The position numbers and the translations under genes were made by a program. A stretch of DNA of 64,000 nucleotides. Origin: an uncultured Ignavibacteria bacterium. GTDB lineage: Bacteria > Zixibacteria > MSB-5A5 > WJJR01. Numbering within the stretch: position 1 is the stretch's first letter; each line of letters opens with the position of its first letter. The notes beneath the pieces were generated by a model that worked only from the letters and a program-made list of their open reading frames with translations, was not told where the DNA came from and did not search any database. The DNA lies in the NCBI GenBank assembly GCA_964593585.1, contig CAZQIZ010000005.1, positions 42,859 through 106,858 of the forward strand, read 5' to 3'. Shown piece after piece: positions 1,717 to 63,828 of this stretch.

Positions 1717-1742
1717 AGGGATGTCCGCGGTTTGGCCTCGTG

Positions 1743-2441: not shown

Positions 2442-2557
2442 TGCCCCCTCCAACCCAGCCCGGCGGGCGGCTCCGTCGACTCAAAAACCGCCAAACGGCA
2501 GGACTCGCCGGTACGGTTAACTCTTGGCCCGACATTGCCGATCGGGCTGGTGACACC

Positions 2558-2563
2558 TATATT
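2558..2563 (+). promoter_or_regulatory. -10 element TATATT, 7 nt upstream of the dusB ATG (putative leaderless start)
   Basis: TATATT-tctcggc-ATG with no SD motif. Confidence 0.45.
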
Positions 2564-2570
2564 TCTCGGC

Positions 2571-3653: not shown

Positions 3654-4841
3654 ATGCGCGCGGTCTATTTCGATGGCCAGTCCGGCGCCTCCGGGGACAT
3701 GCTCCTCGGCGCGCTGGTCGATCTGGGCGCCGATCTCGATGCGATCCGGACGGCCCTGCGGCCGATTGTGCCGGCCGAGTTTGCGCTCCATGTCGAGCGC
3801 GTCTCCTCCTATGAGATCGCCGCCGCCCGCGTGACGGTCAACGTCGAAGAGTCGGCCCGGCACCGTCGTTTGGCGGACGTGGAGTCATTGCTCGATGCCG
3901 GCTCGCTGTCGGCGCCGGTGCGAACACAGGCCACCGCCATTTTCCGCCGTCTAGCCGACGCCGAGGCGCGCATCCATTCGACCACCGCCGACAAAGTGCA
4001 TTTCCACGAGGTCGGCGCCAACGATGCGGTCATCGACATTGTCGGATCGCTACTGGCGCTCGAACTGTTGGGTGTCGATCGGGTTTACTGCGCGCCGCTG
4101 GTGCTTGGATCCGGTGTTGGTCGCTCGGCGCACGGCCCGATTCAATTCCCCGCTCCGGCGGTGCTGGAGTTGCTCAAGGATATTCCCGTGCGCCTGGTCG
4201 CCGACTTGGGGGAGACCACCACACCGACCGCCGCCGCCATCCTCGCGGAAGTGGCGGAATTCAGGACCGAACTTGTCCTGCGAGCCGAGCGTATTGGCTA
4301 TGGCGCCGGGCAGAAGACATTCGCCGACCGTCCCAATCTGCTGCGCGCCACTCGGGGCTTTGTCGATGCCTCCTTCGAGCACGACTCGCTCTGGCTTGCC
4401 GCCAGCGACATCGACAACACCTACCCGGAAATCTTCGAATGGGTCGCCGAGAAATTGCGCGAGGCCGGCGCGGTGGATGTCGTCACGTTTCCGCTGATGA
4501 TGAAGAAGGGACGCATCGGCACCCGCATCGAAGCGCTCTGCGCCGATGACGCCCGCGCCGCCGTCGCGGCGGTCATCCTGCGCGAGACCGGCTCGCTGGG
4601 GGTGCGTTGGCAGTCGGTCCACCGTACGAAACTAGCCCGCCGCATCGAGACGATCGCGACGCCGTGGGGCCCGATCCGCGTCAAAGTCGCGGAAACCGCC
4701 GACGGCGCGCGCGCTATCCCGGAGTACGACGACTGCCGCGCCGCGGCGTCAAAACATGCGCTCCCGCTGGTTGAAATCATTGATCGGGTCACCCGCCTGT
4801 ATTACGATCAGACCCCGGGGCGCACCCAGAAGCGAGGATAA
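3654..4841 (+). CDS. larC: Nickel pincer cofactor biosynthesis protein LarC (full length, fused)
   Basis: DGQSGASGDMLLGAL, HFHEVGANDAVIDIVG, TTPTAAAIL, MMKKGR, ETGSLGVR, PEYDDC. Confidence 0.93.
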   Translation: MRAVYFDGQSGASGDMLLGALVDLGADLDAIRTALRPIVPAEFALHVERVSSYEIAAARVTVNVEESARHRRLADVESLLDAGSLSAPVRTQATAIFRRLADAEARIHSTTADKVHFHEVGANDAVIDIVGSLLALELLGVDRVYCAPLVLGSGVGRSAHGPIQFPAPAVLELLKDIPVRLVADLGETTTPTAAAILAEVAEFRTELVLRAERIGYGAGQKTFADRPNLLRATRGFVDASFEHDSLWLAASDIDNTYPEIFEWVAEKLREAGAVDVVTFPLMMKKGRIGTRIEALCADDARAAVAAVILRETGSLGVRWQSVHRTKLARRIETIATPWGPIRVKVAETADGARAIPEYDDCRAAASKHALPLVEIIDRVTRLYYDQTPGRTQKRG

Positions 4842-5845: not shown

Positions 5846-6751
5846 ATGCGTGTCGCCGCCATCGATCTGGGCACGTTCTCGGCGCTACTGCTGATTGCCG
5901 AGTTGCGGCGTGGACGATTGCATCCCCTCTGTGAAGAACGTCGGACTGTAGACCTCACTTGCGACCGTCATGGCCGCCTCGCCTCCGAAGCAATACGGCG
6001 CGCGCGGCGTGTGCTTTCGCAATACGAGACGCTGGCGCGTCAACATGACGTCGCTGTCGGTTCGGTGGCCGCCACCGCCGCGGTACGCGCCGCCGTCAAC
6101 CGCGCCGCCGTGGTGGAGCAACTGCGCCCGGCAACGTCGTTTCGGGTGCAGGTGCTGAGCGCCCGGCGCGAAGCCGCGCTCTCGGCGCGAGGCGCGCTGT
6201 TGGGGATTCGCGGCGCAACCGCGCAGCGACTTGTCATCGATCTCGGCGGCGGCTCCACGGAAATCGTCGAGCTCGCCTCCGGCACTTTTCGCGGCCTCAA
6301 GATCGGCGCGGCCCGCGCCACCGACCAATGGATCGCGCTCGCGCCGAAAAACCCGGCCGCGCGCGATTTGTACTACCTCGGCTGCGCCGACCGCGCGCTC
6401 CTGTCGCTGAATCCCGATGTCTTTCATGACTCCCGTGCCATCGTTGGGGTGGGAGGGACTTTGACCGCGCTGGCAGCCCTTGCCGCCGGATTGCGTCGCT
6501 TCGATGCGGGTGCGGTCCATGGCCGTGTCCTCACCGCCGACTGGATTGGCGCCACTGCCGCGACGTTGGCGCGGCTGCCAATGGCGCGTCTCCGAGAACT
6601 CCTGCCCTTTGATCCCTCGCGGGCCCGGGTGATTGTCGCTGGAACTTACCTCTGGGCCGCGGTGTTAAACCGCCTGAGCGCAAGGCGCGTGACGGTCTCC
6701 GCGCGTGGCCTGCGTTGGGGCGTGGCGGCCCAACTCGCCGGCCTGCCGTAG
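5846..6751 (+). CDS. ppx: Ppx/GppA family phosphatase (short form)
   Basis: VAAIDLGT, ATAAVR, REA, IDLGGGSTE, GVGGT, GLRWG. Confidence 0.85.
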   Translation: MRVAAIDLGTFSALLLIAELRRGRLHPLCEERRTVDLTCDRHGRLASEAIRRARRVLSQYETLARQHDVAVGSVAATAAVRAAVNRAAVVEQLRPATSFRVQVLSARREAALSARGALLGIRGATAQRLVIDLGGGSTEIVELASGTFRGLKIGAARATDQWIALAPKNPAARDLYYLGCADRALLSLNPDVFHDSRAIVGVGGTLTALAALAAGLRRFDAGAVHGRVLTADWIGATAATLARLPMARLRELLPFDPSRARVIVAGTYLWAAVLNRLSARRVTVSARGLRWGVAAQLAGLP

Positions 6752-6772
6752 CGGTTGCCGACCCTCAACCGC
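6748..6772 (+). repeat. GTAG-preceded hairpin (REP-like) overlapping the ppx stop
   Basis: GTA-GCGGTTG-ccgaccct-CAACCGC. Confidence 0.4.
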
Positions 6773-6902
6773 GACCAGAAAACCCCTTGACCAACTCCAA
6801 CTTGGGGACGACATTCGCTCCCTTACGATGCGCATGGGGGCGCTTCTGTCAGCCAGACCCGGATGCCACGACGCCTTCGGGTTCCACTTCCACCCAAACG
6901 AC

Positions 6903-9500
6903 ATGATGAGCATCTCACACACACGCACCCGCCGGCTTCGGCCGCTCGTCTGGTTTGTCATGCTGGTTCTGTTCGGGCCGGCCGTAGCATTCGCCGCCGA
7001 CCTGCCGCGCGCCTGGCAAATCGATCCGGCCGAGGACGCCTTGTCCAAACCGGCCGTGTCGACCGACACCGTGCCCGGCTCCAACAACGTCGTCGATATC
7101 ATCCACATCACCCCCGATGTCTGGGCCGCGACCGCCAAGGGACCGAGCCGTCTGACGCTGCCGGGAGAACAGTGGCTGACCTATGACACCACCGATGGCT
7201 TGCCGTCCCTTCAAGTGCCGGCGATGGGCGTCTTTCCCAACGGCGCCTGGTCCGCGACCAGCCATACCGAAGTGCGCGATGGCCGTGTGGTGACCTGGGG
7301 GGATGGCCTTTACCGCTTCAATGAGGTGAGCGAGGAGTGGGAGCGACGGACCCCGTCAAACGATCAGGCCTCCGGACCGTTTCAGTTGGCCTACGATCTG
7401 GCCTATGCGCGCGGCCGTCTGTTCGCCACCTGCTTTGCCGGCGGACTGCTGGTCAGCGACGATGATGGTCTTACGTGGGAAAACATCTTCGCCGACGGCA
7501 CCGCCCGCTCGGATTTCGAGAACAAGACCTTCAACGATCTGAACAATCGCTACTTCGCCGCGGTGGTCGACTCGACCCGTCCCGACTCCCTGGCGCTGTG
7601 GGCGGGAACCGCCTACGGCATCAACAAGATGATTTTCCTGACCGACACGCTCAAGCCGCGCGGCAAGGTCTTTCATGACCTCTATCTCGACGGGGCTCGT
7701 CTGTACGCCGCCACCGACGACGGCATGTCACGCACGCCGGACCGCGGCGGCAGTTGGCGCACCTACAATGCGCTTTACGATGGCTTCCCGTCCGATTACG
7801 TCATCTCAACCGCCGCCAAGGGCGACACCTTCTGGGTCGGTCTAGCCAGTCCTGACAACGATTCCGGATTGGGGCTTGCCTACAGTTTCAACAACGGACG
7901 CGACTGGACGGTCACCCAGCCCTTCCACGCCACCGGCCCGGGGCGACGTCCGCGGGACATCGCGTTGACACCCGGCCGCGTCTGGGTTGCATGCGAGAAC
8001 GGTGGAGTGATCTACGCCGACATGCCCGGTGTTGTGTGGGAAAACGCCCTCGGCATCGACGCGTATTCGCTTCTGCCCGCGCCGCCGGATGATCCGGAGA
8101 CTGTTTTCATCGGCACCGATGTCGGCATCTACGCCTGGCCGGTGGCGGGACCGCCGTTGCCCGGCGCTACCATGCCGATCGGCATCGAAGCCGACTCCAT
8201 CGGACAGAGGGTGATCGGCATGGGATACCAGCAGACGCCCTGCACAACCGCCTTTGATTCCGTGATCTGGGCGCTCTGTGAGCCCGGCAGCAACGGATTC
8301 GGCACCGCGGGGTTTGCGATCAGCGCCGATGGCGGCGAGACTTGGGATGTCTCATCGCGCCGACTCGGTGTGCGCGATGTGGTCTTTGAGGGCTGCCGTT
8401 ATTGGCTGGCCACCGACAGCGGCTTGGCCGAAGGCGACATCCGCAATCTCGACAGTCTCATGTTCACCGCCTCATACAGGAACATGGTCAATAACAAGCG
8501 CATCGGCGCCCAACCGCTGTCGCTGGAAGCCGAGATCGGCGAAGATGACCTGACCGGCGCCGATGTCCTCAAGACCCTCTGGGTCGGCACCGACTCGATG
8601 ATGGCGCGTACGCTGGACAAGGGCATCACCTGGGGCGTGGTCTTCTCCAACCCCAATCCCAACGACTTCGATCTGCTTGAGTTCTTCCGCTATCGCGACG
8701 ATGACACCGCCATCGCCGGGTTCGAGCAACTCTCCGGCAATTTCATCACCGCGATCGGCTTCCAGCCGGGCGGGCGCGGCACCATCTGGGCGGCCACCCA
8801 GGCCACCGGGCAGGGGCGTTTCGCCAACATCTTTACCGGATCGAAGGAGAAAGATGGCCTCTCGGTGACGCGCGATGCGGGACGGACCTGGTCGGTGCCG
8901 CTCACCGGCCATCAGATCTGGAACTTCGCCTTCGATGGCGCCATCGTCTGGGCCGCCTCCTCGCAGGGGCTGCTCTACTCGCCCGATAACGGCGTCTCGT
9001 GGGACACGATCAACACCTTTACCGATCCCGAAACCGGCGCGGTCATCGACTCGACCACCGAGGTCTTCGCGGTCGAACTGGTGGGCAATGAAATCTGGGT
9101 CGGCACCGCCAACGGCATGGCGATCCTGACACGCAACGGTCAGACCAAGGCGGTGCGTCGTGGCTTCAAGTCCGTGCAGCCGGGTGCGGCGGGCGGCGAG
9201 GGAGGGGCGTATGCCACGCCCGTGCCGTATTCGCCCAACATTTCCTCCGGCGGCATCCGCTTCCATTACACGCCGCCGTCCGACGGCCCGGTTACTATCA
9301 AGATTTACGATTACGCCAACAATCTCGTTAAGACCGTCACCGATGGCGCGCTGCGCGAAGGGGCACGGCAATACGACGAGCTCGACATTTGGGATGGACG
9401 CAATGGCGAGGGAGAGGTCGTCGCCGTGGGCACCTACTTCTTTGTCATCGAATACTCCGGCGGCGAGACGCACTGGGGTAAACTGGTGGTGATTCCGTGA
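6903..9500 (+). CDS. Large secreted Asp-box/BNR beta-propeller protein with C-terminal FlgD-Ig / T9SS-CTD-like domain
   Basis: Signal peptide ending AFA-A. Seven Asp-boxes (SDDDGLTW, TPDRGGSW, SFNNGRDW, SADGGETW, TLDKGITW, TRDAGRTW, SPDNGVSW). C-terminus PVPYSPN...VTIKIYD...WDGRNGEGEVVAVGTYFF...WGKLVVIP. Confidence 0.85.
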   Translation: MMSISHTRTRRLRPLVWFVMLVLFGPAVAFAADLPRAWQIDPAEDALSKPAVSTDTVPGSNNVVDIIHITPDVWAATAKGPSRLTLPGEQWLTYDTTDGLPSLQVPAMGVFPNGAWSATSHTEVRDGRVVTWGDGLYRFNEVSEEWERRTPSNDQASGPFQLAYDLAYARGRLFATCFAGGLLVSDDDGLTWENIFADGTARSDFENKTFNDLNNRYFAAVVDSTRPDSLALWAGTAYGINKMIFLTDTLKPRGKVFHDLYLDGARLYAATDDGMSRTPDRGGSWRTYNALYDGFPSDYVISTAAKGDTFWVGLASPDNDSGLGLAYSFNNGRDWTVTQPFHATGPGRRPRDIALTPGRVWVACENGGVIYADMPGVVWENALGIDAYSLLPAPPDDPETVFIGTDVGIYAWPVAGPPLPGATMPIGIEADSIGQRVIGMGYQQTPCTTAFDSVIWALCEPGSNGFGTAGFAISADGGETWDVSSRRLGVRDVVFEGCRYWLATDSGLAEGDIRNLDSLMFTASYRNMVNNKRIGAQPLSLEAEIGEDDLTGADVLKTLWVGTDSMMARTLDKGITWGVVFSNPNPNDFDLLEFFRYRDDDTAIAGFEQLSGNFITAIGFQPGGRGTIWAATQATGQGRFANIFTGSKEKDGLSVTRDAGRTWSVPLTGHQIWNFAFDGAIVWAASSQGLLYSPDNGVSWDTINTFTDPETGAVIDSTTEVFAVELVGNEIWVGTANGMAILTRNGQTKAVRRGFKSVQPGAAGGEGGAYATPVPYSPNISSGGIRFHYTPPSDGPVTIKIYDYANNLVKTVTDGALREGARQYDELDIWDGRNGEGEVVAVGTYFFVIEYSGGETHWGKLVVIP

Positions 9501-9514
9501 GGGGCGCATACGCA

Positions 9515-10525
9515 ATGACTCAGACCCTTGGCACTCGTCGTTGGATCGCCGCATTGACGGCGGCGCTGGCGTTCTGGCCGGTGGGCGTGGCGGCACAGGA
9601 GGACGGCGGCCAGCCGGGCGCGATGCTGGATTGGAGCGTCGGCGCGCGCGCCGTCGCCATGGGCTCGGCCTTCACCGCCACCGCCGAAGGCCCCAGCGGC
9701 TCCTGGTGGAACCCGGCCGGGATCGCGCAGACCCGTCAGGACGCCATCGAAATGGCGCTGCGCAAAATGTCCTTCGACCGGCAGGCCGGATATGTCAACT
9801 ACATCCATCCCTTCGGCCGCGAGGAAGCGGCGATGGGGTTCTCGTGGATCTACGCCGGTGTCGGCGACATCTTCGCCCGCGACATCGACGGCCAGATCGG
9901 CGGTGAGATCTCCGATTACTCCAACGCCTTCGCTTTCACCTTCGCGCGCCGGTTTACCGAACGAACCGCGCCGACCGCCATATCCCTCGGCGTGAATCTG
10001 CGCTATGTCCAGCACAACATCGCCAACATCAGCGCCTACACCGTCGGCTTCGACCTCGGAGCGCAGTTGCGCCACCGCATGCTCAAGCGCGGCATGGCTG
10101 CCGACGCCATCCCCAACGAACTGCGGCTTGGCGTGGCGGTCCAGCGGCTCAACCAGAAATACCCCTGGACCACCAGCGACTATTGGATCGAGGAAGGGGA
10201 ATCAGGGGGATCGTCGTTTGATGAGAAATTTCCGGTGGTGGTGCGCGGCGGAGTGGCGGCGCTTTTGTTCGATGGGCGCGCGCTCGGCGCGGTCGATGTG
10301 AAAGTCGACGCCGACCGCGGTGCGACCGTGCACGTCGGCGCCGAAGGCCGCTTCCGCGAACTGATCGCGGTGCGTGCCGGCGTCGATGACGGCCGTCTCA
10401 CCTTTGGCGGCGGGGTGGAGCCGCGGGCCTCCAGCCGCGTGCGTTTTGTGCTCGACTACGCCTTCGCGGTGCAGCCCGATGAGATTGACGCCGAGCATGT
10501 CTTCTCGCTGGGTGTGCGCTTCTAA
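9515..10525 (+). CDS. PorV/PorQ-family outer-membrane beta-barrel
   Basis: Signal peptide, VGARAVAMGSAFTA, WWNPAG, alternating beta-strands, terminal HVFSLGVRF. Confidence 0.85.
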   Translation: MTQTLGTRRWIAALTAALAFWPVGVAAQEDGGQPGAMLDWSVGARAVAMGSAFTATAEGPSGSWWNPAGIAQTRQDAIEMALRKMSFDRQAGYVNYIHPFGREEAAMGFSWIYAGVGDIFARDIDGQIGGEISDYSNAFAFTFARRFTERTAPTAISLGVNLRYVQHNIANISAYTVGFDLGAQLRHRMLKRGMAADAIPNELRLGVAVQRLNQKYPWTTSDYWIEEGESGGSSFDEKFPVVVRGGVAALLFDGRALGAVDVKVDADRGATVHVGAEGRFRELIAVRAGVDDGRLTFGGGVEPRASSRVRFVLDYAFAVQPDEIDAEHVFSLGVRF

Positions 10526-11521: not shown

Positions 11522-12385
11522 ATGCGCCGGCGGCTCCGTGTTCTGACAGCCCTCTCGCTTTGCGGCTTCCCGGCCGTGGCGATGGCCGGGACGCGTGATG
11601 TCACACCGGCGCTGGTCGTTCAGACTCAACGCCTGCCCGAACTCATCGCAATTGTCCTGGTCATCGCCGCGGCCTTCATCGCCGGCCGGCTGGTGAAACG
11701 GCGCGGCGCGCCGGCGCTGCGTCCCCTGCCGCCGCTTGATGCCCTGCCCGATGCTATCGGACGCGCCACCGAAACCGGCACGCCGGTGGTCTACATCACC
11801 GGCTGGGGGGGCGACATGGGACGTCCCACCACCATGGCCTCGATGCAGATTCTCTCGCATGTGGCCCGACAATCCGCGCAGTACAATTGCCGCCTGCTGT
11901 TTCCCAGCCACGATCCGGTGATCGCGCAGGTCGCCGATGACACGATCACGCAGGCGGCCTCGCTGGCGGGACGCCCGGAGTGGAAGGCGCTGACCGCCGC
12001 GACCTTCGTCACACAAAGCCAGTTCGGCTACGCCGCCGCGATCGAGGGAATCGTCGCGCGCGAACATCCCGGCGCGGTCCTGCTTCTGGGCACCTTCGAG
12101 GGCGAGGCGTTGATCCTCGCCGAGGCGGCGCATCGCTCCGGCGCGGTCACCATTGCCGGCACCGATTCGACCATCCAGCTGTCGTTTTTCCTGGTCGCCT
12201 GTGACTACACTCTGATCGGCGAGGAGCTATTCGCGGCCTCGGGTGTTCTCTCCGGCGATGCGCGCACCCTCGGCGCGCTCTGGGCGCAGGACTGGCTGAA
12301 GTACCTCGCGCTGGCCATCCTGCTCTGCGGCGCTCTGGTCCTGCGGCTTGCCGCCTATGACGCCGGTCCGTGGCTGGCGAAATGA
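11522..12385 (+). CDS. DUF6754-like membrane-anchored protein of unknown function
   Basis: N-terminal hydrophobic segments; conserved-looking core (LDALPDAIGRATE, QFGYAAA, EALILAE, QLSFFLVACDYTLIGEELFAA); C-terminal TM. The family name is from recall and needs an HMM check. Confidence 0.75.
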   Translation: MRRRLRVLTALSLCGFPAVAMAGTRDVTPALVVQTQRLPELIAIVLVIAAAFIAGRLVKRRGAPALRPLPPLDALPDAIGRATETGTPVVYITGWGGDMGRPTTMASMQILSHVARQSAQYNCRLLFPSHDPVIAQVADDTITQAASLAGRPEWKALTAATFVTQSQFGYAAAIEGIVAREHPGAVLLLGTFEGEALILAEAAHRSGAVTIAGTDSTIQLSFFLVACDYTLIGEELFAASGVLSGDARTLGALWAQDWLKYLALAILLCGALVLRLAAYDAGPWLAK

Positions 12386-12392
12386 ATCGACG

Positions 12393-13022
12393 ATGAATCT
12401 CCTGCGCGACCGCCTCACCATTCTGACCGCCGCCACCGCCGGTGTCTTCATGGTCGTGCAGTACTTCGTCACATCGCCGGGGATGGATGCGACCTACCGC
12501 GCCATTCTCAACTGGATGCAGGTGATCTTCGCCTGCGCCTTGATGGTCGGCATCGCCGCGGTGGTGAAAAACCACTTCGTCCGCCTCCGACGCCGTCCCG
12601 CCGAACGGCTGTATTCGCTGGTGCTTTTGGCTTCGGTGGCGGCGATGGCGCTGATGGGGTTTTCCGGCGGCATCGATCAGGGCTCGTCGTTTCTTTGGGC
12701 CTTCAATCATCTGCAGGCGCCGATGCAGGCCACGGTCTTTTCGCTTCTGGCCTTCTATGTGACCTCGGCGGCCTTCCGCGGATTCCGCGCCCGCTCGGTG
12801 GAGTCGGCGGTGCTCATCGCCGCCGGGTTGATCGTACTCATCGGGCGAGTCCCATTGGGCGAGCAGATCAGCGCGCAATTGCCGGCGGTGGCCGAGTGGA
12901 TTGTCAATGTGCCGGCGCTGGCCGCCAAACGCGCCATCCTGATCGGTATCGGGCTGGGAATGGTCGCCACCGCCCTGAAAGTCATCGCCGGCGTCGAGCG
13001 CACCTACTTGGGGGGACGGTAG
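12393..13022 (+). CDS. Polytopic membrane protein of unknown function (cassette gene 2)
   Basis: About 5-6 hydrophobic segments; PMQATVFSLLAFYVTSAAFRGFRARS, LIGRVP, KRAILIG. Starts 7 nt after gene 1. Confidence 0.85.
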   Translation: MNLLRDRLTILTAATAGVFMVVQYFVTSPGMDATYRAILNWMQVIFACALMVGIAAVVKNHFVRLRRRPAERLYSLVLLASVAAMALMGFSGGIDQGSSFLWAFNHLQAPMQATVFSLLAFYVTSAAFRGFRARSVESAVLIAAGLIVLIGRVPLGEQISAQLPAVAEWIVNVPALAAKRAILIGIGLGMVATALKVIAGVERTYLGGR

Positions 13023-13023
13023 G

Positions 13024-13824
13024 GTGCGCGCGCGCCGGATCATCTTTGCGCTGCTGGCGATCGTGATGATCGCCGTCATGATTTGGCGGCCGCGGCTGCC
13101 GATCACCGTCACCGATTCCACCCGCGCCGTCTTCGCCATGATCGAAGCGCTCGACTCGAACGCGGTGGTGATGATCTCCTTTGATCACGAGGCCTCCAGT
13201 CTGCCCGAGATCGGTCCGATCGGCGCGGCCATCGCCGATCACTGCTTCCGTCGCGGCATCAAAGTGGTCGGGCTGGCGCTGTTTTCTGAAGGAAATGCCA
13301 TCGGCTATGACCTGCTCTCCCGCCGCGCCATACGGCAGGGGAGAGAGTACGGCGACGACTGGATCTACCTCGGCTTCCGTCCGCAGTACACCGCCGCCAT
13401 CCTCGGAATAGGGGAGAACATCGGCGATGTCTTCGCCACCGACTATCTCGGCGCGCCGCTGTCCCGTCTGCCGCTGGGCGCGCATGTCCGCAACTACGAG
13501 GACATCGATCTGGTGGTCTCGGTCGCCGATGGGTCGATGCCGACCTATTGGATCGAATACGCCGCCAATCGCTACGGTGAAAAGGTCGTCGCGGCGCTCT
13601 CGGCGGTCATGGTAACCTCGTTTACGCCCTATCAGGAATCCGGGCAACTGGCCGGCATCCTCACCGGATTGAAGGGCGCCGCTGAATACGAGCAACTCCT
13701 GCAATCGCCCGCCGCGGGTGTGCGTGGCATGGCGGCGCAGTCGGCCGCGCATGTGCTGATCGCCTTCCTCGTGCTCTGGGGCAACATCGAGGCATGGCGC
13801 TCCCGCAAACGGAGGGCCGCCTGA
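13024..13824 (+). CDS. Membrane-anchored protein of unknown function (cassette gene 3)
   Basis: GTG start 1 nt after gene 2. N- and C-terminal TMs flank a soluble domain (EYGDDWIYLGFRP, SGQLAGILTGLKGAAEYE). Confidence 0.85.
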   Translation: MRARRIIFALLAIVMIAVMIWRPRLPITVTDSTRAVFAMIEALDSNAVVMISFDHEASSLPEIGPIGAAIADHCFRRGIKVVGLALFSEGNAIGYDLLSRRAIRQGREYGDDWIYLGFRPQYTAAILGIGENIGDVFATDYLGAPLSRLPLGAHVRNYEDIDLVVSVADGSMPTYWIEYAANRYGEKVVAALSAVMVTSFTPYQESGQLAGILTGLKGAAEYEQLLQSPAAGVRGMAAQSAAHVLIAFLVLWGNIEAWRSRKRRAA

Positions 13825-13825
13825 G

Positions 13826-14416
13826 ATGTGGTGGGAAACCACGATCACCGCGCTGCTGACGCTGGCCATCTACACCATTCTGGTCGGCGACAATCCGATC
13901 TACAAATTCGCCGAGCATCTCCTGCTGGGTCTGTCGATCGGGTACTCGCTTGTGGTGACGGTCAAATCGATTCTGATCCCGCAGACGATCTCGCCGCTGG
14001 GAGAGGGCCAATGGGCGGCGTTGATCCCGGTGATTCTCGGCTCGGCGATGTTTCTGCGTGTGCATCCCCGCCTGGCCCCCTGGTCGCAGATTCCGCTCGC
14101 GCTCTTGATCGGCGCCGGCGCAGGCGCGGCCATCCCGGCGATGATGCAGGCACGGGTGCTCAAGCAGACCGCCGCCACCATCTCCGGCAGTGGCAGCGTC
14201 GATGGCGTGATCATTTTGTTGGGCGTGCTGGTGACGCTGATGTATTTCGTCTTCACCTGCCGTCACACCGGCGCCTGGGGCCGGGCCGCCGTCGCCGGGC
14301 GGTACTTTATGATGATATTCTTCGGCGCCACCTTTGCGTATACGGTAATGTCACGCATGGCGCTCCTGATCGGGCGTCTCGAGTTCCTACTGTCCGACTG
14401 GCTCGGCGTGATCTGA
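13826..14416 (+). CDS. Polytopic membrane protein of unknown function (cassette gene 4)
   Basis: Starts 1 nt after gene 3; about 6 TMs; TLAIYTILVGDNPIYKFAEHLLLG, MIFFGATFAYTVMSRMALLIGRL. Confidence 0.85.
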   Translation: MWWETTITALLTLAIYTILVGDNPIYKFAEHLLLGLSIGYSLVVTVKSILIPQTISPLGEGQWAALIPVILGSAMFLRVHPRLAPWSQIPLALLIGAGAGAAIPAMMQARVLKQTAATISGSGSVDGVIILLGVLVTLMYFVFTCRHTGAWGRAAVAGRYFMMIFFGATFAYTVMSRMALLIGRLEFLLSDWLGVI

Positions 14417-29862: not shown

Positions 29863-30825
29863 ATGACCCTCCTCGACCGCTTCTTTGCCGGCGACCGTGT
29901 GGCTTTGGCCCGCATCATCACCCATGTCGAAAACCGTGCCCCCGGCTACCACGAGGTGCTCTCGCGCATCTTTGCGCACCGCCATGGCGCCTATCGGGTC
30001 GGGTTGACCGGCCCGCCCGGCGCCGGAAAATCGTCGCTGGTCAACCAGCTGGCGCTGATGCTGGCCGGCGAGGGGCACAATGTCGGGGTGATCGCGGTCG
30101 ATCCCTCCAGCCCGTTTACCGGCGGCGCGCTTCTGGGTGACCGGGTGCGCATGAAGTCGCTCTATGGCATCGAGAATGTCTTCATCCGCAGCATGGCCAC
30201 ACGCGGTTCCTCCGGCGGGCTGGCCGCCGCCACGAAAGATGTCTGTGTGGTCATGGAAGGTTTCGGCTTCGACATCGTGTTGATCGAAACTGTCGGCGTC
30301 GGCCAGATCGAACTCGACATCGCCGCCGTCTGCGACACCGTGGCCGTGGTCTTCGTGCCCGAATCGGGCGATGCCATCCAGGCGATGAAATCGGGCCTGA
30401 TGGAAATCGCCGATGTCTTCTGCCTGAACAAGAGCGACCGTCCCGGTTCCGATCGCATCAAGGCCGAACTGGAATCTATCCTTGAAGTGCGCCGCGAGGT
30501 CCGCAAGTCGCTGGGCACATTCTCCGATTGGCACCCGCCGGTGACAATGTCGGTGGCGACCTCGGGGCAGGGGATTCCCGCGCTCTGGGACTCCATCCAG
30601 AAGCACCGTGCCTACCGGGAGCAACGCGACCCGGCCGGGCATTTGCGGCTGCGTGTGCGTTCCGATCTCATCCTGGCGCTGCTTGAGCTGGCGCGTCGCG
30701 AGCTGGATGCCGACCTGCTCGAATCGCCGCGACTCGAGCAGGCGGTCGATCAGATTGTTTCCCGCCACGCCGACCCGTACACGATGGCGCAGAAGCTCTT
30801 CGCCGACTGGCGCGTTCGGGCATAA
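29863..30825 (+). CDS. meaB: MeaB/ArgK G-protein chaperone of B12 mutases
   Basis: GPPGAGKSS, VDPSSPFTGGALLGDRVRM, ETVGVGQ, NKSD. Confidence 0.96.
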   Translation: MTLLDRFFAGDRVALARIITHVENRAPGYHEVLSRIFAHRHGAYRVGLTGPPGAGKSSLVNQLALMLAGEGHNVGVIAVDPSSPFTGGALLGDRVRMKSLYGIENVFIRSMATRGSSGGLAAATKDVCVVMEGFGFDIVLIETVGVGQIELDIAAVCDTVAVVFVPESGDAIQAMKSGLMEIADVFCLNKSDRPGSDRIKAELESILEVRREVRKSLGTFSDWHPPVTMSVATSGQGIPALWDSIQKHRAYREQRDPAGHLRLRVRSDLILALLELARRELDADLLESPRLEQAVDQIVSRHADPYTMAQKLFADWRVRA

Positions 30826-30982: not shown

Positions 30983-32698
<1,716 letters not shown>

Positions 32699-32785: not shown

Positions 32786-32823
32786 GCTAAGACTGACGAT
32801 TTAATTGAAGCCGAACTGACGTG

Positions 32824-33570
32824 ATGGATCAACTGACCTCATACGCATTCTACGGCGGACTGGCGCTGGCGGTCATCGCCTGGGCCATCCACTTCGCCTA
32901 CCATCGCGGGCGCAAGCGAGGAGTCTCCGAGGCCGAGGGGTCGATGGCCGATCTGCCCGAGGTCAAGTGGCTCAACGGTGAGGATTCGCCCACCGGCCGG
33001 CGCTGTCTGGACTGCCGCGCTTACGCCTTAGGCGTTCAGTTGGTCACGCAGGACAAGGAAGCCCTCGAACGATTCAGCGAGAACTGCGCCTCCGACGGCA
33101 GCGAGATTGAGGGGAAGTCGCCCGACAACGCCTGGCTGGTCGCGGTCGACTGGAGTTTTGATTTCGAGCAGGCCGAAGCGATCACCGGGGGGATGCGTCC
33201 GCAGGTCGCCGAAGACATGTGGATGATCGACTGCATCGGCGCGCGCATCTACTTCCGCCGGAGCTGGTCCGGGCAACTGGTCTTCATGTCCAATTTCTCG
33301 CGTATACCGTCGGCTGGCGCCCGGATCACGCGTCTCTGGGTTCCGGGCGTAGAGCCGTTCGACCAGCAGACTCCCGAGTATCTGGCCGCGTATGTGCGCC
33401 ATCTGGTCGACACGCATTTGTTGGGCACCCTGACACCCTTCCCGATTCCGCTCGATTTTTCCGGCGACGATGAGAAGATTGCCCAGTTCGTCTTCCACTC
33501 CGTCGGACGGCGCGGCTGGCTGGCGGAGTACTTCAAACCCGACGAGCATGCCAAGGACATACACGAGTAG
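32824..33570 (+). CDS. Membrane-anchored hypothetical protein
   Basis: N-terminal TM; CLDCRAY motif; C-terminal [10 protein letters not shown]...[13 protein letters not shown] segment; normal codon usage. Confidence 0.75.
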
Positions 33571-45361: not shown

Positions 45362-46957
45362 ATGGACGATAAGCCAAAAGCCCCGCCGGTCACTTCTTCA
45401 GGAATTCCGATAGCGCCGCTGTATGATCGCTGGCCCGACGGTTTCGATCCATCGCGCGACCTCGGCGCCCCCGGCCATTACCCCTTCACGCGCGGCGTCT
45501 ACGAGGGAATGTACACCCGGCGCCTGTGGACCATGCGCCAGTACGCCGGATTTGGCACCGCGCGCGAATCCAACGCCCGCTATCGCCACCTGCTTGCGCA
45601 GGGGCAGACCGGGCTGTCAGTGGCCTTTGATCTGCCCACCCAGATGGGCTACGATTCCGACCACCGCCTGGCGCGCGGCGAAGTCGGCCGCACCGGCGTC
45701 GCCATCGACGGACTCTGGGACATGGAGGTCCTCCTCGACCAGATTCCGCTCGAACAGGTGTCGATCTCGATGACCATCAACGCGACCGCCGCTATCCTGC
45801 TGGCCCTGGTGGTCGCGGTCGCCAAACGGCGGGGAGTGCCCCTCGATGGGCTCTCCGGCACCATCCAGAACGACATTCTGAAAGAATACATCGCCCGCGG
45901 CACCTACATCTATCCGCCGAAGCCGTCGATGCGGCTGATTGCCGACACGATCCGTTACTGCCATGCGACCCTGCCGCGCTGGAATCCGATTTCGATTTCC
46001 GGCTACCATATCCGCGAGGCCGGCTCGACCGCCGCGCAAGAGATCGCCTTCACGTTGGCCAATGGCATCGCCTACGTCGACAATGCGCGCGCCGCCGGGC
46101 TGCACGTCGACGATTTCGCCCCGCGGCTCTCGTTCTTCCTGAACGTGCACAACAATCTGTTCGAGGAGATTGCCAAGTTCCGCTGCGCCCGCCGCCTCTG
46201 GGCTCGGATCATGAAGGAACGCTACGGCGCGCAGAAGGCCGAGTCGATGCGCTTCCGCTTCCACACGCAGACCGCCGGCTCCACGCTCACCGCCCAGCAG
46301 CCGCTGGTCAATGTTCCGCGCGTCACGCTGCAGGCGCTGGCGGCCGTCCTCGGCGGCACCCAGTCGCTGCACACCAACGCCTACGACGAAGCGCTGGCGC
46401 TGCCGACCGCCGAATCGGCCGAGCTGGCGTTGCGCACCCAGCAAATCATCGCCTATGAATCCGGCGCCGTCGAGACCGCCGATCCGCTCGCCGGCTCGTT
46501 CTTCATCGAATCGCTGACCAACGAACTCGAAACGCGGGTGACCGCCCTGCTCGACGCGGTCGATAAACTCGGCGGCGCGGTTGCCGCCGTCGAAAAGGGA
46601 TACTTCGCCCGCGAAATCGAACGCTCCGCCGTCGACTACCAGCGACGCATCGAAAAAGGGGAGATGACCGTCGTCGGGGTCAATCGCTTCGTCAAAGACG
46701 CGACCGCGACGGTTGCCATCGCCCATCTGGATCCGGCGCTGGAGCGCGAGCAATGCTCGCGTCTGGCCGCCGCCCGCGCGGGCCGCGATGCGGCGCAGGT
46801 TGCCGGCGCGCTGGCGCAACTGGAGACACTGGCGCGCGGCGACGGCCATCTCATGCCGCAGATCGTCGCCTGCGTCGAGGCACAGGCCACTCTCGGCGAG
46901 ATCGCCGACACTCTCCGCGCAGTCTGGGGAGAATACCAACGCGCCCAGGGCGGTTGA
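45362..46957 (+). CDS. B12 methylmalonyl-CoA mutase large subunit
   Basis: WTMRQYAGF (Tyr) and EYIARGTY (Arg) form the MCM signature; [19 protein letters not shown]. Confidence 0.92.
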
Positions 46958-58720: not shown

Positions 58721-59026
58721 AATTCATCTCCACCTGACAGGAACTGTCACTGTCTCCTGTATAGATTCCTGTTAACAGCGGGAATCGCGTATGTATTTTG
58801 GAGGTGATCGTTCCAGGCCCCAATACCGCTGTGTGAAAACCCGTGCTCCTTCTCGTCCCTCGGAGCAGTGCTATTGCTGTCGGCTCCGGGAGGCAAAAAA
58901 TCGGGTGATTTTGCTTCTTGCCGTGTGTCAAACGTGGGTGGCGTCGGTGCTGGCTGCCACGGATGTACAGGCCGTTGATAACCGTTCCAAGGCATTAACG
59001 TTCAACGGCGAAAGGTGGTGACGCAG

Positions 59027-59248
59027 TTGCCGGAAGGAAACGTGAAATGGTTCAACGACGCCAAGGGGTACGGTTTCATCCGCCAGGATGGCGACAACCG
59101 GGACGTGTTTGTCCACTACTCCGCGATTCATGGCGACGGATTCAAAACCCTGAAAGAGGGTGAGCGCGTCTACTTTGAAGTCGTCCAGGGCCCCAAGGGG
59201 CTTCAGGCGGCGACAGTACAGCGGGGCGGGGCTCCCCAGGCGCAGTAG
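59027..59248 (+). CDS. Cold-shock domain protein
   Basis: [35 protein letters not shown] start is chosen from the SD-like AAAGGTGG spacing; GTG starts at 59015/59018 are alternatives. Confidence 0.95.
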
Positions 59249-59274
59249 AATCCAATTCCGACCATGAGAACCAG

Positions 59275-59302
59275 AAAAGGGCGCGCCAGCCGCGCCCTTT
59301 TT
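59275..59302. terminator. Intrinsic terminator after csp
   Basis: AAAAGGGCGCG-CCAGC-CGCGCCCTTTTT. Confidence 0.85.
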
Positions 59303-59499: not shown

Positions 59500-62016
59500 A
59501 TGTACGTGGACGAACAACGGCCCCCTGAGCAGACCGGCGAGCGCGCCGGCGCGGTTACCTTGCCCTGCATCCCGTTGCAGGCCGAGGTGCCCTTCCCGCT
59601 GGCCGTGGTCTCCGCGGTTCTGCGCTTTTCGTATGCCTACGAGGTCGTTTCGCGCGCTCACGAGGGCGAGCAGTTCTGGATCTACTGGACCCACGATGAT
59701 GCCGACCCCCGACGCGCGCCGCAAAACCTCCCTGACATCGGCGTGGTCTGCCGGCTTCTGTCTCTGCGCGAACTCGGACCGGGACAATTGCGGGTCGACC
59801 TGGAAGGCCTCTATCGCGGGCAGCGTCTGGCGATCATCGGCGAAGAGACGGCCGTACGGCTCATGGTGCGTCCGGTCGAGGAACTGACCGTCCCCGCGCC
59901 GACGTGGCAGGAGAAAATCGACCTTTGCGCCGGTCTTCTCGCCACCCTGGTCAATCGCTCCGAGCAGTACCCGGCGGAACTTCTGAAGATTGCCGAATTG
60001 GCGCGCGACCGCGCCGACCATTTCGCCGACCGGATCGCCGCGGCGGTTCACTTCCCGCAGGAAGAGAAGTGGCGCCTGGCGCAACTGGCCGATCCGGGAG
60101 CGCGTCTCGACTTACTGGCCGATCTGCTGCGGGGCGAGGTGGAGGAAGCGGGACGTCGCGCTGATCTGGCGCGTCGTGTCCGCGCCTCCAACGAGCGCCG
60201 GCAAAAAGCCGAGATGCTCCGCTCCGAACTGACCGCGTTGCGCAAGGAGCTGGAGTCGCTGGAGCCGGGCGCCAATGAACACGACCAGTTGGCCGAGCAG
60301 ATCGCCGCGGCCGGACTGCCGGTCTCGGTGGCACGTCGCGCCCGCAACGAACTCGAGCGCCTGCGCATGATCTCGACCGCCTCGGCGGAATACACGGAAA
60401 TCCGCAACTACATCGACTGGCTGATCCATATTCCCTGGACCGCGCTGGCCCATGAGCGCACCGACGGCGACGAAATCCGTCACATTCTCGATGGCCAGTT
60501 TTACGGCCAGAAGCGCGCCAAGGACCGGCTCTGCGAATACCTGGCGGTCATGCACCGCACCGGACGGCCTGCGCCCAATGTCCTCTGCCTGACCGGCGCC
60601 TCCGGTATCGGCAAGACGCAACTGGCCAAAGGCATCGCCAAGGCGTTGCGCCGTCCGATGATCACACTCAACCTCGGCCTGTTGCGCTCGGAGGGTGTGC
60701 TCAAGGGGAATCGCCGCACCTTTCCCGGCGCGATGCCAGGACGCATCATCCGCCAACTGCGCGCCGTCGAGGTGGTCAACCCCATCTGCCTGCTGGAAGA
60801 CGTGGACCGTCTCGGCACCGAAAACAACCGTCCCGACCTTTCGGCGGTCCTCTTGGAGGCGGTCGATCCGGAGATCAATAGCGAATTCTGGGACTACTAC
60901 CTCGAATTCCCGTATGATCTCTCCAAGATCCTCTACATCTGCACCGCGACCGACCCGGAGAGCGTGCCGGAGATGCTGGCCGAGCATCTTGAGTTTATCG
61001 ATCTGCCCGGCTATCTGCTCGAAGAGAAAATCGAGATCACCTTCAACTATCTCTGGCCGCGTCAATTGGCCCAGCACAATCTCCCGGCCGAGGAGTTTAC
61101 GCTGACCGTGGCGGCGGTGCAGAAGATCATCCGCGAGTACACGCTCGAAGCCGGGCTTTCGAATTTGAACAAGTACCTCGAGGTCATCTGCCGACACTTG
61201 GCCGGCCAGCGCGCCGCCGGGCAGCGCGGCTTCGTCCGGGTCGGAGTTCAGCACATCGAGCGACTTTTGGGTACTCCCATTTTCATCCCGGAAAAAGCCG
61301 AGATGAAGCCCGAAATCGGCGTGGCGATGGGCGTCGCCTGGACCCAGACCGGCGGCGACATCATGCTGATCGAGGCGCTCAAGATGCGGGGCTCCGGACA
61401 GGTGATCTCGACTGGCTCGCTGGGCGACGTCATGCGCGAGTCGATCCAGGCGGCGCATTCCTATGTTCGCTCCCGCGCCGACTGGCTGGGTATTCCCCAC
61501 TCCGACTTCGCCAGTTACGACATCCATGTCCACTTCCCCTCGGGCGCCATCCCCAAGGATGGCCCCTCCGCCGGCGTCACCGTCTCCGTGGTCATCGCGT
61601 CGGTGATGTCCGAACGGCCGATCCGCAATGACTACGCCATGACCGGCGAGGTCTCCCTGCGCGGCAAGGTGCTGCCGGTGGGGGGGATCAAGGAGAAGGT
61701 GGCTGCCGCGCACCGGGTGGGAATTCACAAGATCATCGTCCCCAAGCAGAATGTGAAGGACCTCCAGGATGTCCCGCGCCGGATCGCCAAGGAGATGACC
61801 TACATCCCGGTGGAGACCGTCGATGAGGTCTTCGAGGCGGTTTTGCTTGATTTTGATCCGGCCAAGGCCAGTTTGGAGAAACTTTTGCGGATGGAAATGG
61901 TACGTAAGCATACCGCCCGCCGGCAGCGCGCCGCGGCGCGGGGCAAGGCCCGCGCCCGGGCCAAGAACCGGCGCGGTGAGAAAAAACGCGCCACCGGACG
62001 ACGTCGAAGCCGATGA
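59500..62016 (+). CDS. lon: LonA-type protease with degenerate AAA+ motifs
   Basis: LON-N-like domain, AAA+ region, protease domain with PKDGPSAG (Ser) and GGIKEK (Lys). Confidence 0.92.
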
Positions 62017-62112
62017 TCCCACGTAAGAGAATCCTTGTTATCCGGCTTTCCAGGCCGGATTTTCATTTGATGAACGCCGCGTCCATTCAGTCCTGATTCC
62101 GGGGAGGGGTAA

Positions 62113-63828
62113 GTGAGAAAAGTCGTCTGTGTTGCCATTGTCTGTCTGATCACGCTGATGGAATCCGCGGTCGGCCAGGGACGCGCCGCCGACGGCGATC
62201 CGCTGCTGCAGGCCCTGCAAAGCGAGATGGGTCGTTCTGTGGCCCGTCTGCGGCTGGACGACTACGAGCCTCCGTATTTCATCTCGTACCGGCTGACCGA
62301 TGTCCGCTCCGTTGATTATCGTGCCAGCTACGGCGCCCTCACCTCAGCCGGCGGCGATCGCTACCGCGCCCTGGCCGTCGATGTGCGCGTCGGCGACTAT
62401 ATCGACGACAACACCTCCGACGACGACGGCTTCTATTTCGACCCGCGCGATTCCGATTCCTACATGTACTCGCGCCGGTACGCGCCGATCGACAACGACA
62501 CCGCCGCGTTGCGGCAGGACCTCTGGTTACTGACCGATTTCCGCTACAAGACCGCGCTGGAGACCTTCATTGGCGAGCGCGGCCGGCGGGTGCAAAAGGT
62601 GGACAAACCCGACCGTCCCGATGACTTCTCGCCGGCGCCGAAGGTCGAACGGCTCGAACCGATCGACACGCTGGCCATTGACCGCAAACGCTGGGAGGGG
62701 TTGGTCCGCGCCATCTCCGCCCGCTTCCGCGTCCATCCGCTCATTCATTCCTCCGATGTCGACTTCATGGCCAGTTCGCAGATGCGCTACCTTTTGACGT
62801 CCGAGGGAACGAAACTGCGCACCAATCTCCATAACTTCTCCATTTCCATCGCGGCCGAGACCCGCGCCGATGACGGCATGCCGATTTCATTGGAGACTGT
62901 CTGGAAGACTCACCGTGCCGATGGACTGCCCGATTCCGTCGCATTAGCCCGTGCCGCCGATTCGCTGGCCGGTCTGCTCCTGCAGTTGCGTGAGGCGCCG
63001 GTGATGGAGCCCTACACCGGCCCGGCCATCATCAAAAGCGGCGCCTCTGGCGTCTTTTTCCATGAGGCGCTCGGGCACCGTCTCGAAGGCCACCGCACCC
63101 GGCGCGAATCGGAGGGACACACCTTCAAGCAGAAGATGAACCAGCGCATCATCCCCGACTTCCTCGATGTCTACGACGACCCGACGGCGACCCACGCCGC
63201 CGGGACTGAATTGTATGGTCATTATGCGTATGACGATGAGGGGGTGGCCGCGCAACGCACCTCGTTGGTCGAAAACGGCGTTCTGACCGGATTCCTGATG
63301 TGCCGCACGCCGATCAAGGACATCAAGACCTCCAACGGGCACGGCCGCAGCGATATGTGGAGCGAACCGGTCAGCCGCATGGGCTCGCTGTTTGTCTCCA
63401 CCGACGCGCCGGTCTCCTACGATTCCCTGCGCGCGCTGCTTTTGGCCGAGTGCCGCAAGGAGGGCAAGGACTACGGCCTCATTTTCGAGGACATTGCCGC
63501 CGGCGAGACTAACACGTCATCGTATGGCGTCCAGACGCTGCGGGTCCGTCCACGTGTGGTCAAGAAGGTCTATGTCGCCGATGGCCGCGAAGAACTGGTG
63601 CGCGGCGTCGAACTGATCGGCACGCCGCTGGCGGTGCTGGAGAGCATCCAGTCGGCCGGCAATGATCCGGGCGTATTCAACGGTGTCTGCGGCGCCGAAT
63701 CGGGGTGGGTGCCGGTGTCCGCCATCGCGCCGAGCGTGCTGGTCGGCGAAGTGGAAGTCCAGCGCATGGACCGCAATCTCAAGCGCGGCCCGATTCTCCC
63801 GCCGCCGCTGCATGATCCCGGCACCTGA
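62113..63828 (+). CDS. TldD/PmbA-family metalloprotease with predicted signal peptide
   Basis: GVFFHEALGHRLEG (HExxGH), YDDEG, SNGHGR, FNGVCG (third Zn ligand Cys); N-terminal MRKVVCVAIVCLITLMESAVG; GTG start. Confidence 0.88.
   Translation: MRKVVCVAIVCLITLMESAVGQGRAADGDPLLQALQSEMGRSVARLRLDDYEPPYFISYRLTDVRSVDYRASYGALTSAGGDRYRALAVDVRVGDYIDDNTSDDDGFYFDPRDSDSYMYSRRYAPIDNDTAALRQDLWLLTDFRYKTALETFIGERGRRVQKVDKPDRPDDFSPAPKVERLEPIDTLAIDRKRWEGLVRAISARFRVHPLIHSSDVDFMASSQMRYLLTSEGTKLRTNLHNFSISIAAETRADDGMPISLETVWKTHRADGLPDSVALARAADSLAGLLLQLREAPVMEPYTGPAIIKSGASGVFFHEALGHRLEGHRTRRESEGHTFKQKMNQRIIPDFLDVYDDPTATHAAGTELYGHYAYDDEGVAAQRTSLVENGVLTGFLMCRTPIKDIKTSNGHGRSDMWSEPVSRMGSLFVSTDAPVSYDSLRALLLAECRKEGKDYGLIFEDIAAGETNTSSYGVQTLRVRPRVVKKVYVADGREELVRGVELIGTPLAVLESIQSAGNDPGVFNGVCGAESGWVPVSAIAPSVLVGEVEVQRMDRNLKRGPILPPPLHDPGT

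Follow-up and report, generated by a model that had tools for sequence, protein, structure and literature searches.

When the residues that drive ATP hydrolysis are replaced in a LonA protease, does the enzyme cease to be a motor, and what is its AAA+ module then kept for? This question is raised by a lon-like gene in the 64,000-nucleotide stretch of contig CAZQIZ010000005.1 presented here (the window; all coordinates and strands refer to its positions). The gene encodes an 838-residue protein with the body of a LonA and an intact Ser-Lys protease dyad, and it departs from canonical LonA at four elements of the hydrolytic site. Judging from the conservation patterns set out below, we think it fairly probable that the protein is a LonA-derived protease that binds nucleotide, hydrolyses little or none of it, and is functionally convergent with LonC.

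A LonA protein with a remodelled ATP site

The open reading frame (ORF) is uninterrupted and ATG-initiated, as a preliminary description of the locus had stated, and it covers the full LonA domain set (Table 1). With residues numbered as in the 838-residue protein, and those of canonical LonA as in E. coli, the Pfam matches run from LON_substr_bdg (20-210) through AAA (362-494) and Lon_lid (525-575) to Lon_C (581-782, E=1.6e-81). The NCBIfam model for endopeptidase La, TIGR00763, is passed only barely (614.2 bits, with the cutoff at 608.05), and the score against the E. coli-type model PRK10787 is 497.6 bits, below its cutoff of 891. Alignments to LonA proteins of solved structure extend over the whole length, with 36-41% identity (T. 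thermophilus 7p6u, E=3e-148; E. coli 6u5z). An AlphaFold2 model built from a 34-sequence alignment is confident within domains (mean predicted local distance difference test score 81.6) and has a beta-rich N-domain followed by long helices at 199-310; its best structural matches are the full-length LonA chains 7p6u, 7fd4, and 7ypk (E ~1e-65). Of the features that define LonA membership (MEROPS S16, subfamily A), the N-domain, the long helical region, PKDGPSAG with its Ser-Lys dyad and a Walker A of the form GxxGxGK[ST] are present. The protein shares its domain order, from N-domain to S16 protease, with the LonA enzymes of E. coli, Y. pestis, M. taiwanensis, and T. thermophilus (6u5z, 6on2, 7fd4, and 7p6u), along with the protease consensus, the best-matching fold and LonA descent. 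By its sequence, it is a member of a LonA-derived serine protease lineage found mainly in Zixibacteria.

The differences from these enzymes lie elsewhere. All motif strings were checked by translation at exact coordinates, with correspondences taken from the alignment to 7p6u and 6u5z. The catalytic ATPase set of LonA consists of a Walker B of the form hhhhDE, a sensor-1 Asn, an Arg finger acting in trans and a sensor-2 Arg acting in cis, and the protein has none of these: its Walker B reads ED for DE, Thr replaces the Asn of sensor-1, the finger position is His and sensor-2 is Ser. Pore loop 1 has Phe-Pro where LonA has Tyr followed by Ile or Val, and the C-terminus carries an additional helix and a Lys/Arg-rich tail. 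In pore loop 2, the hydrophobic residue is not conserved, and the same position is variable in canonical Gemmatimonadota Lons. The roles of D423, E424, N473, R484, R542, and Y398/I399 in LonA have been published (PMC7239648, PMC8503904). The Walker B Glu activates water, and in Y. pestis Lon the E424Q substitution alone lowers ATPase activity by about 90% (PMC7239648). Sensor-1 and sensor-2 position the gamma-phosphate, and the trans Arg finger is critical for hydrolysis (PMC7239648, PMC8503904), while Y398 and I399 grip the substrate (PMC7239648).

The preliminary description had also listed Walker A as a lesion. We do not regard it as one, since GASGIGKT still matches GxxGxGK[ST] with both Lys372 and Thr373 kept, and nucleotide binding is probably retained. 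All of its motif strings held on translation: the dyad and GGIKEK are perfect (S690 and K733 align with S679 and K722), pore loop 1 reads RRTFPG, and Thr occupies sensor-1. The LLED string is likewise correct, although the positions given for it, 60796-60801, cover E433-D434 alone. Four hydrolysis elements do deviate, but the list lacked the sensor-2 change from Arg to Ser and made no mention of the basic C-terminal tail. Taken at face value, the AAA+ module, once an ATP-burning unfoldase, seems now to bind nucleotide while hydrolysing little or none of it.

The substitutions are shared by a clade and kept under purifying selection

A word-indexed search collected approximately 35 proteins that are 48-99% identical to the window protein and that we call the query clade; the first canonical Lon follows after a drop in score from 828 to 572 bits. 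Members that carry a name, and matches from the genome collection, are Zixibacteria metagenome-assembled genomes (MAGs), with one labelled Ignavibacteria. An identical protein is also encoded on a 125.7-kb contig of the Joint Genome Institute (two contigs in all), and the source organism recurs in freshwater and sediment metagenomes.

The substitutions are therefore not private to this assembly, as the preliminary description had asked one to verify, and the clade divides the ATP site into fixed and drifting positions. Walker A is GxxGxGKT in 34 of 35 sequences (the exception, P0026, reads GKV); in alignment A1, K372 and the Ser-Lys dyad are invariant and T373 is nearly so. A PGY motif is kept, and pore loop 1, RRTFPG, is almost invariant, with Phe in 32 and Pro in all 35 sequences. 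The first acidic position of Walker B is Glu rather than Asp in 34/35, sensor-1 is Thr in 33/35, and sensor-2 is Ser, Gly, Thr, or Ala and never Arg. The catalytic-Glu position, by contrast, is occupied by Asp, Glu, Gly, Gln, or Ala, and it differs even between relatives that are more than 80% identical overall (Glu in P0006, Gly in P0007, Asp in P0008). Gln at this position is the classic hydrolysis-trap substitution. The change at the Arg finger, which the preliminary description had reported correctly for the window protein, is a recent one: His is found only in the closest subclade (P0001-3, 5, 7-9), to which this protein belongs, and most of the clade has Arg.

Coding sequences were compared via the ratio of non-synonymous to synonymous substitution rates (dN/dS). 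The window gene and a 99% identical relative from an independent run (L011) differ by 91 synonymous and 6 non-synonymous changes (dN/dS 0.02); in the AAA alpha/beta core, all 17 changes are synonymous. For the pair L006 and L008, the same core has 30 synonymous and 2 non-synonymous differences. More distant clade pairs give 0.04-0.13 for AAA and 0.02-0.05 for the protease domain, and the alpha/beta subdomain ranges from 0.00 to 0.13 among clade pairs. Since selection is strongly purifying, the AAA module must still be used; with changes common to the approximately 35 relatives and dN/dS values of 0.02-0.1, the earlier proposal of selection rather than decay is upheld. Within the clade, identity is highest in the protease domain (75-88%), lower in the AAA core (53-69%), and lowest in the fast-evolving N-domain and helical region (24-33%). 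Comparably diverged canonical Lons have the reverse order, with 60-71% for AAA and 55-60% for the protease domain, at similar N-region identity. The AAA core is thus under purifying selection and yet less conserved than the protease domain, and we take this to mean that it is constrained for a non-catalytic role.

These data also dispose of the alternative that the gene is a pseudogene or an assembly or sequencing artefact. One related copy, on the MAG JBKKDE01 (swi_bin.70; L004), does have an in-frame TAA at approximately codon 755 (positions ~4229-4231), in place of the Lys of KQNVKDL in relatives. This would cut the last ~85 residues, and a sequencing error, a strain variant or a real truncation could explain it. 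For the gene studied here, we consider such an origin next to impossible: the 838-codon frame is intact, the identical protein lies on two contigs and the 99% relative comes from an independent run. In addition, the approximately 35 clade members and 120 sister-clade members (see below) are full length, and clade conservation together with a dN/dS of ~0.02 effectively refutes it.

Canonical LonA sites are nearly invariant, and a second Zixibacteria clade is remodelled differently

To place the clade among LonA proteins at large, 1.84 billion cluster representatives were scanned exhaustively with HMMER, giving 150 LonA-like sequences, 140 of them outside the lineage of the window protein. All five residues (Walker B Asp and Glu, sensor-1 Asn, finger Arg and sensor-2 Arg) are kept in 133/140; sensor-1 Asn is present in 136 and the aromatic pore-loop residue in 133 of these 140. 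Because the positions are near invariant in LonA, four simultaneous departures in one protein are not background noise.

The scan added representatives that the word-indexed search had missed (P0265-69, P0272, P0273, P0276, and P0277). They are ~40% identical to the window protein, outscore every canonical Lon, and carry source names from Zixibacteria and, in one case, Eisenbacteria. Their ATP sites are all remodelled, with Walker B reading EG, DD, ED, or DN, sensor-1 being His, Glu, Arg, Ser, or Thr, and sensor-2 usually lost. All of them share the C-terminal feature of the query clade: a conserved helix, LLDF.P....LE.LL, precedes a tail of ~35 residues with 13-17 Lys/Arg. In a neighbour-joining tree, the degenerate, basic-tailed sequences are monophyletic, with bootstrap values of 100% for the query clade, but only 64% for the core superclade and 13% when the one Eisenbacteria sequence is included, though long-branch attraction is possible in such a tree.

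A profile search showed that one of the added types, P0267, represents a large Zixibacteria clade (P0414-P0532) that occurs in closed genomes (e.g., CP070674.1; L013, 10001-12478). It shares with the window protein the phylum, the architecture, the dyad, the basic tail, Walker B ED and the loss of the sensor-2 Arg, and groups with it in the core superclade. It differs in being only ~40% identical, in having lost the Walker A Thr (GKA) and in combining a sensor-1 Arg with a retained Arg finger. Among 120 members, the site reads GxxGTGKA, hhED, sensor-1 Arg, and sensor-2 Leu; the Arg finger and aromatic pore loop are kept, and the dyad is invariant. A non-canonical site fixed in this way suggests a conserved alternative chemistry or ligand and not simple decay.

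Closed genomes with the P0267 type are absent from the query-clade matches, and the converse is true among the top matches listed. The gene neighbourhoods differ as well: the P0267 type has ExbBD/TonB genes and a DEAD-type helicase gene upstream, although an M1 peptidase with a He_PIG domain can be nearby in both. Since genome sets do not overlap and neighbourhoods differ, the two types would seem to be counterparts that have diverged rapidly in separate Zixibacteria lineages, and not paralogues residing in one genome, but this is not proven. Across this uncultured candidate phylum, the altered LonA design is maintained by strong selection, and the protein probably works as a protease with no ATP-driven motor.

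Outside the superclade, 7 representatives deviate: P0303, P0319, P0344, and P0384 (772-830 aa) and P0270, P0271, and P0279 (1,090-1,379 aa). Decay of the LonA ATPase therefore appears to be rare but recurrent. Some of the 7 have Arg in place of the Walker A Lys, and the 3 long proteins combine a sensor-2 Trp with ASA, not PSA, in the protease site.

Resemblance to LonC without LonC descent

A Lon protease without ATPase activity is already known in LonC, whose protease ring is joined to an AAA-like module with degenerate Walker B, sensor, and finger motifs. Its hexamers each bind six nucleotides yet have no ATPase activity, and they cleave substrates that are unfolded but not those that are folded (PMC3391209, PMC13069640). 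Cleavage needs no ATP, and ATP-gamma-S promotes closed hexamers with an active protease loop (PMC3391209, PMC13069640). The degenerate AAA motifs on the Lon protease described here appear analogous to those of LonC (MtaLonC; T. thermophilus TTC1975, 4fw9). LonC, however, is without the LonA N-domain, has the protease-domain insertions CX3GLX[G/E] and helix alpha5, and groups with LonB, not LonA (PMC3391209). The window protein is not a LonC, because it has the LonA N-domain and the LonA-type consensus, and its match to TTC1975 is weak and confined to the protease domain (residues 641-755, E=1.7e-5); its best matches are full-length LonA proteins. The resemblance is convergent, without homology at the level of subfamilies, and we consider it reasonably likely that the LonC solution was reached independently from a LonA ancestor.

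Two other families were considered and rejected. Archaeal membrane LonB has a transmembrane insertion and no N-domain; the window protein is without the insertion and scores 115 bits against TIGR00764 (vs 517), in the protease domain only. Similarly, BrxL of BREX systems (TIGR02653) yields 40.8 bits (vs 628), again limited to the protease domain, and the neighbouring genes are housekeeping genes. A literature search for degenerate, pseudo-ATPase, or paralogous LonA proteins and for Zixibacteria Lon found only papers on LonC and on canonical Lon structures, with subscription-only papers not covered.

What the AAA+ ring may still do

From the sequence state, clade conservation, purifying selection, and fold described above, we infer ATPase loss, nucleotide binding, a substrate class and a role for the tail as follows. 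A LonA-type ring probably still assembles from the subunits, given that no domain is missing and that the LonA-like fold is predicted with confidence, and the conserved GxxGxGKT makes it probable that the P-loop still binds ATP or ADP. With the Walker B Glu, the sensor-1 Asn and the sensor-2 Arg replaced, and in the window protein the Arg finger as well, the known roles of these residues in LonA lead one to expect that hydrolysis is absent or very slow; the ring could then neither translocate hand over hand nor unfold its substrates. The binding of nucleotide would serve ring assembly, or the allosteric opening and activation of the Ser-Lys protease. The enzyme would be limited to peptides and to unfolded or intrinsically disordered proteins able to diffuse through the axial channel, and the aromatic Phe-Pro pore loop would line this passive channel. 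More speculatively, the Lys/Arg-rich tail might tether the enzyme to a polyanion such as nucleic acid, polyphosphate, or an acidic partner. The preliminary description had offered both an ATP-independent peptidase and a nucleotide-gated, non-translocating Lon; the intact Walker A, the drifting Glu position, and the highly conserved protease domain would fit either.

Several points weigh against this reading. Many clade members read LLEE and so still have Glu at the catalytic position, most retain the Arg finger, and a Thr at sensor-1 is compatible with activity in some other AAA+ ATPases, so that a slow or unconventional ATPase is conceivable. The Glu fixed at the first Walker B position could have taken over the catalytic role, and the conserved aromatic pore loop would be expected of a machine that still translocates. 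No RNA runs are listed for the window gene or its L001 orthologue, and no evidence of expression was found.

The alternative to which these observations lead is a genuine ATP-dependent Lon with a rewired site, in which the fixed first-position Glu, the Thr sensor-1, and a neighbouring residue take over catalysis while the aromatic pore loop translocates. Strong purifying selection on the AAA core, the intact Walker A, and a TIGR00763 score just above the cutoff are in line with it. We nevertheless consider it unlikely. The catalytic-Glu position drifts between Asp, Glu, Gly, Gln, and Ala even among close relatives, no clade member keeps the sensor-2 Arg, and in the window protein the Arg finger is missing too. 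None of these changes occurs in the 133 fully canonical representatives, and the single E424Q substitution is already severe in Y. pestis Lon. Finally, constraint is looser in the AAA core than in the protease domain, whereas canonical Lons show the opposite.

The protein might instead be a regulatory or structural subunit of mixed hexamers, the third possibility that the preliminary description had named; it would bring protease sites or substrate or polyanion binding, but no motor, to a canonical LonA from another locus. Other mixed AAA+ rings (m-AAA and FtsH hetero-oligomers) tolerate subunits that do not hydrolyse ATP, and an Arg finger kept in most of the clade suggests that inter-subunit sensing still matters. 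On the other hand, tblastn with a canonical Lon, run against the 64-kb window and 12 related loci (within 10 kb of the gene), recovered the degenerate gene alone. Cluster look-ups for 20 representatives gave no canonical Lon labelled Zixibacteria, with the named genomes themselves not scanned. The nearest canonical match, P0036, is from Gemmatimonadaceae and thus uninformative on this point. P0117, a candidate for the canonical Lon of the P0005 genome, is from a different sample, and its tig-clpX-lon gene order is one that we take to be typical of Bacillota. The lon-like gene is monocistronic with its own terminators, and a shared ring interface is less likely because the protein is only ~37% identical to canonical Lons and has a divergent N-domain. 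To our knowledge, mixed LonA hexamers have not been documented in bacteria. We rate a mixed ring as very improbable.

The basic tail and the gene neighbourhood

The tail is absent from most canonical Lons, but present in the sister Zixibacteria clades; AlphaFold2 models residues 787-819 as a helix, with low confidence, and leaves the end disordered. The tail raises a further possibility, namely that the main role is that of a nucleotide-independent holdase or chaperone, or of a nucleic-acid- or polyphosphate-associated factor, with proteolysis secondary, similar to the chaperone activity of LonC heptamers. LonC is indeed a dual chaperone-protease (PMC13069640). The tail itself is conserved in the clade, with 15-17 Lys/Arg in the last 35 residues, and genes for RNA-remodelling proteins lie upstream in both clades: a cold-shock-domain (CSD) gene in the query clade and a DEAD/Suv3-like helicase gene in the sister clade. 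However, the protease domain and dyad are the most strongly conserved parts of the protein, so that proteolysis is clearly under selection, a terminator separates the CSD gene from the lon-like gene, and basic tails are not specific, being found in 8/133 fully canonical LonA representatives. A primarily chaperone-like role thus seems improbable to us, and a protease with a possible polyanion tether remains the preferred description.

Strong hairpins that resemble intrinsic terminators flank the lon-like gene, which for this reason looks like a transcription unit of its own. The CSD gene is directly upstream of the lon-like gene in every query-clade locus inspected (the window, L001, L002, L011, and L012), with a terminator in between, and in the sister clade (L013/L014), the upstream gene encodes a 900-aa DEAD/Suv3-like helicase. 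CSD protein and helicase are both RNA-remodelling proteins, which may have a bearing on the basic tail. Downstream, the TldD/PmbA-like gene is followed by a gene for an M1 peptidase with He_PIG (L012, 14515-16728), and L001, L002, and L012 share the gene order lon-like/TldD/M1; in L014, a peptidase of the M1 + He_PIG type is also close to the sister-clade gene.

Table 1. Positions of the lon-like gene, its domains and motifs, its neighbours, and further genes in the window.
Feature	Position	Strand	Remarks
lon-like coding sequence	59500..62016	+	ATG start, 838 codons, uninterrupted; full LonA architecture
LonA N-terminal substrate-binding domain and long helical region, aa 20-320	59557..60459	+	PF02190, E=1.2e-13
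AAA+ alpha/beta subdomain, aa 321-502	60460..61005	+	PF00004; catalytic site remodelled
Walker A GASGIGKT	60595..60618	+	Lys372/Thr373 present; fits GxxGxGKT
Pore loop 1 RRTFPG, F408-P409 (canonical RRTY[IV]G, Y398-I399)	60712..60729	+	translation, alignment
Walker B LLED, E433-D434 (canonical hhDE, D423-E424)	60790..60801	+	Asp to Glu and catalytic Glu to Asp
Sensor-1 T484 (canonical Asn, E. coli N473)	60949..60951	+	within TAT(D), 60943-60954
Arg-finger position H496 (canonical Arg, E. coli R484)	60985..60987	+	within AEHLEF, 60979-60996
AAA+ lid / small alpha subdomain, aa 503-580	61006..61239	+	PF22667, E=1.1e-10
Sensor-2 position S554 (canonical Arg, E. coli R542)	61159..61161	+	structure alignment
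Lon S16 protease domain	61267..61854	+	PF05362, E=1.6e-81; Ser690 at 61567-61569, Lys733 at 61696-61698
Protease motif PKDGPSAG	61552..61575	+	intact; Ser690 = E. coli S679
Protease motif GGIKEKV	61681..61701	+	intact; Lys733 = E. coli K722
Clade-specific C-terminal extension, conserved helix then Lys/Arg-rich tail of ~35 aa	61855..62013	+	17 Lys/Arg in last 35
Cold-shock-domain (CspA-like) gene, directly upstream of lon-like	59015-59248	+	
Intrinsic terminator after the cold-shock gene	59274..59302	+	12-bp stem, 7 GC pairs, T-run
Intrinsic terminator directly 3' of the lon-like stop	62040..62060	+	9-bp stem, then TTTTCATTT
TldD/PmbA-like protein, downstream of lon-like	62113-63828	+	N-terminal signal-like hydrophobic segment
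Two methylmalonyl-CoA-mutase-family large subunits	30983-32698, 45362-46957	+	
MeaB GTPase	29863-30825	+	

Other features of the window and related loci

The mutase subunits and MeaB sit among genes for acyl-CoA dehydrogenase, carboxylase, thiolase, and 3-hydroxyacyl-CoA dehydrogenase, in what looks like an acyl-CoA or branched-chain catabolic region. At 1740-3650 (+), a 636-aa ORF with a GTG start has a Dus (dihydrouridine synthase) domain only at residues 290-594, and represents either a call that is over-extended at the 5' end or an unannotated N-terminal extension. Three ORFs on the + strand (9497-10525, 12348-14416, and 32821-33570) have a strong coding signal (GC content at third codon positions ~0.82) and no Pfam match at E<=1e-5; ORFs of this kind adjoin a DUF6754 gene and a gene for a large BNR/FlgD_ig protein (6705-9500). 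Outside the window, genes for a BshC-like protein, a GT4 glycosyltransferase, and a PIG-L deacetylase lie in a row in L012 (19427-22517), 7-10 kb downstream of the lon-like gene, and look like a bacillithiol biosynthesis cluster in a Zixibacteria genome.

Implications for Lon and for Zixibacteria

A more far-reaching proposal, which we offer tentatively and regard as doubtful in its entirety, is that Zixibacteria have replaced the universal ATP-dependent LonA with a non-hydrolysing derivative as their sole Lon. The ring would have become a ligand-gated, polyanion-tethered gate for the protease, an independent re-invention of the LonC strategy, with two clades having adopted different non-catalytic site chemistries (E-x/Thr vs GKA/ED/Arg).

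If ATPase activity has been lost, ATP-independent Lon proteolysis would have arisen at least twice, in LonC and in the Zixibacteria lineage, and the "Endopeptidase La" annotations in Zixibacteria genomes would be functionally misleading. The protein would also provide a compact LonA scaffold for nucleotide-gated, motor-less proteolysis, and its conserved basic tail offers a way into polyanion-directed proteolysis. Few AAA+ machines are as conserved as LonA, and changes in its catalytic ATPase residues are exceptional. A lineage that keeps the full LonA body and a conserved protease while letting the catalytic Glu drift is a natural experiment, in which one may ask what an AAA+ ring contributes apart from hydrolysis, be it assembly, gating, or allosteric activation of the protease, and by which route a motor becomes a pseudo-ATPase.

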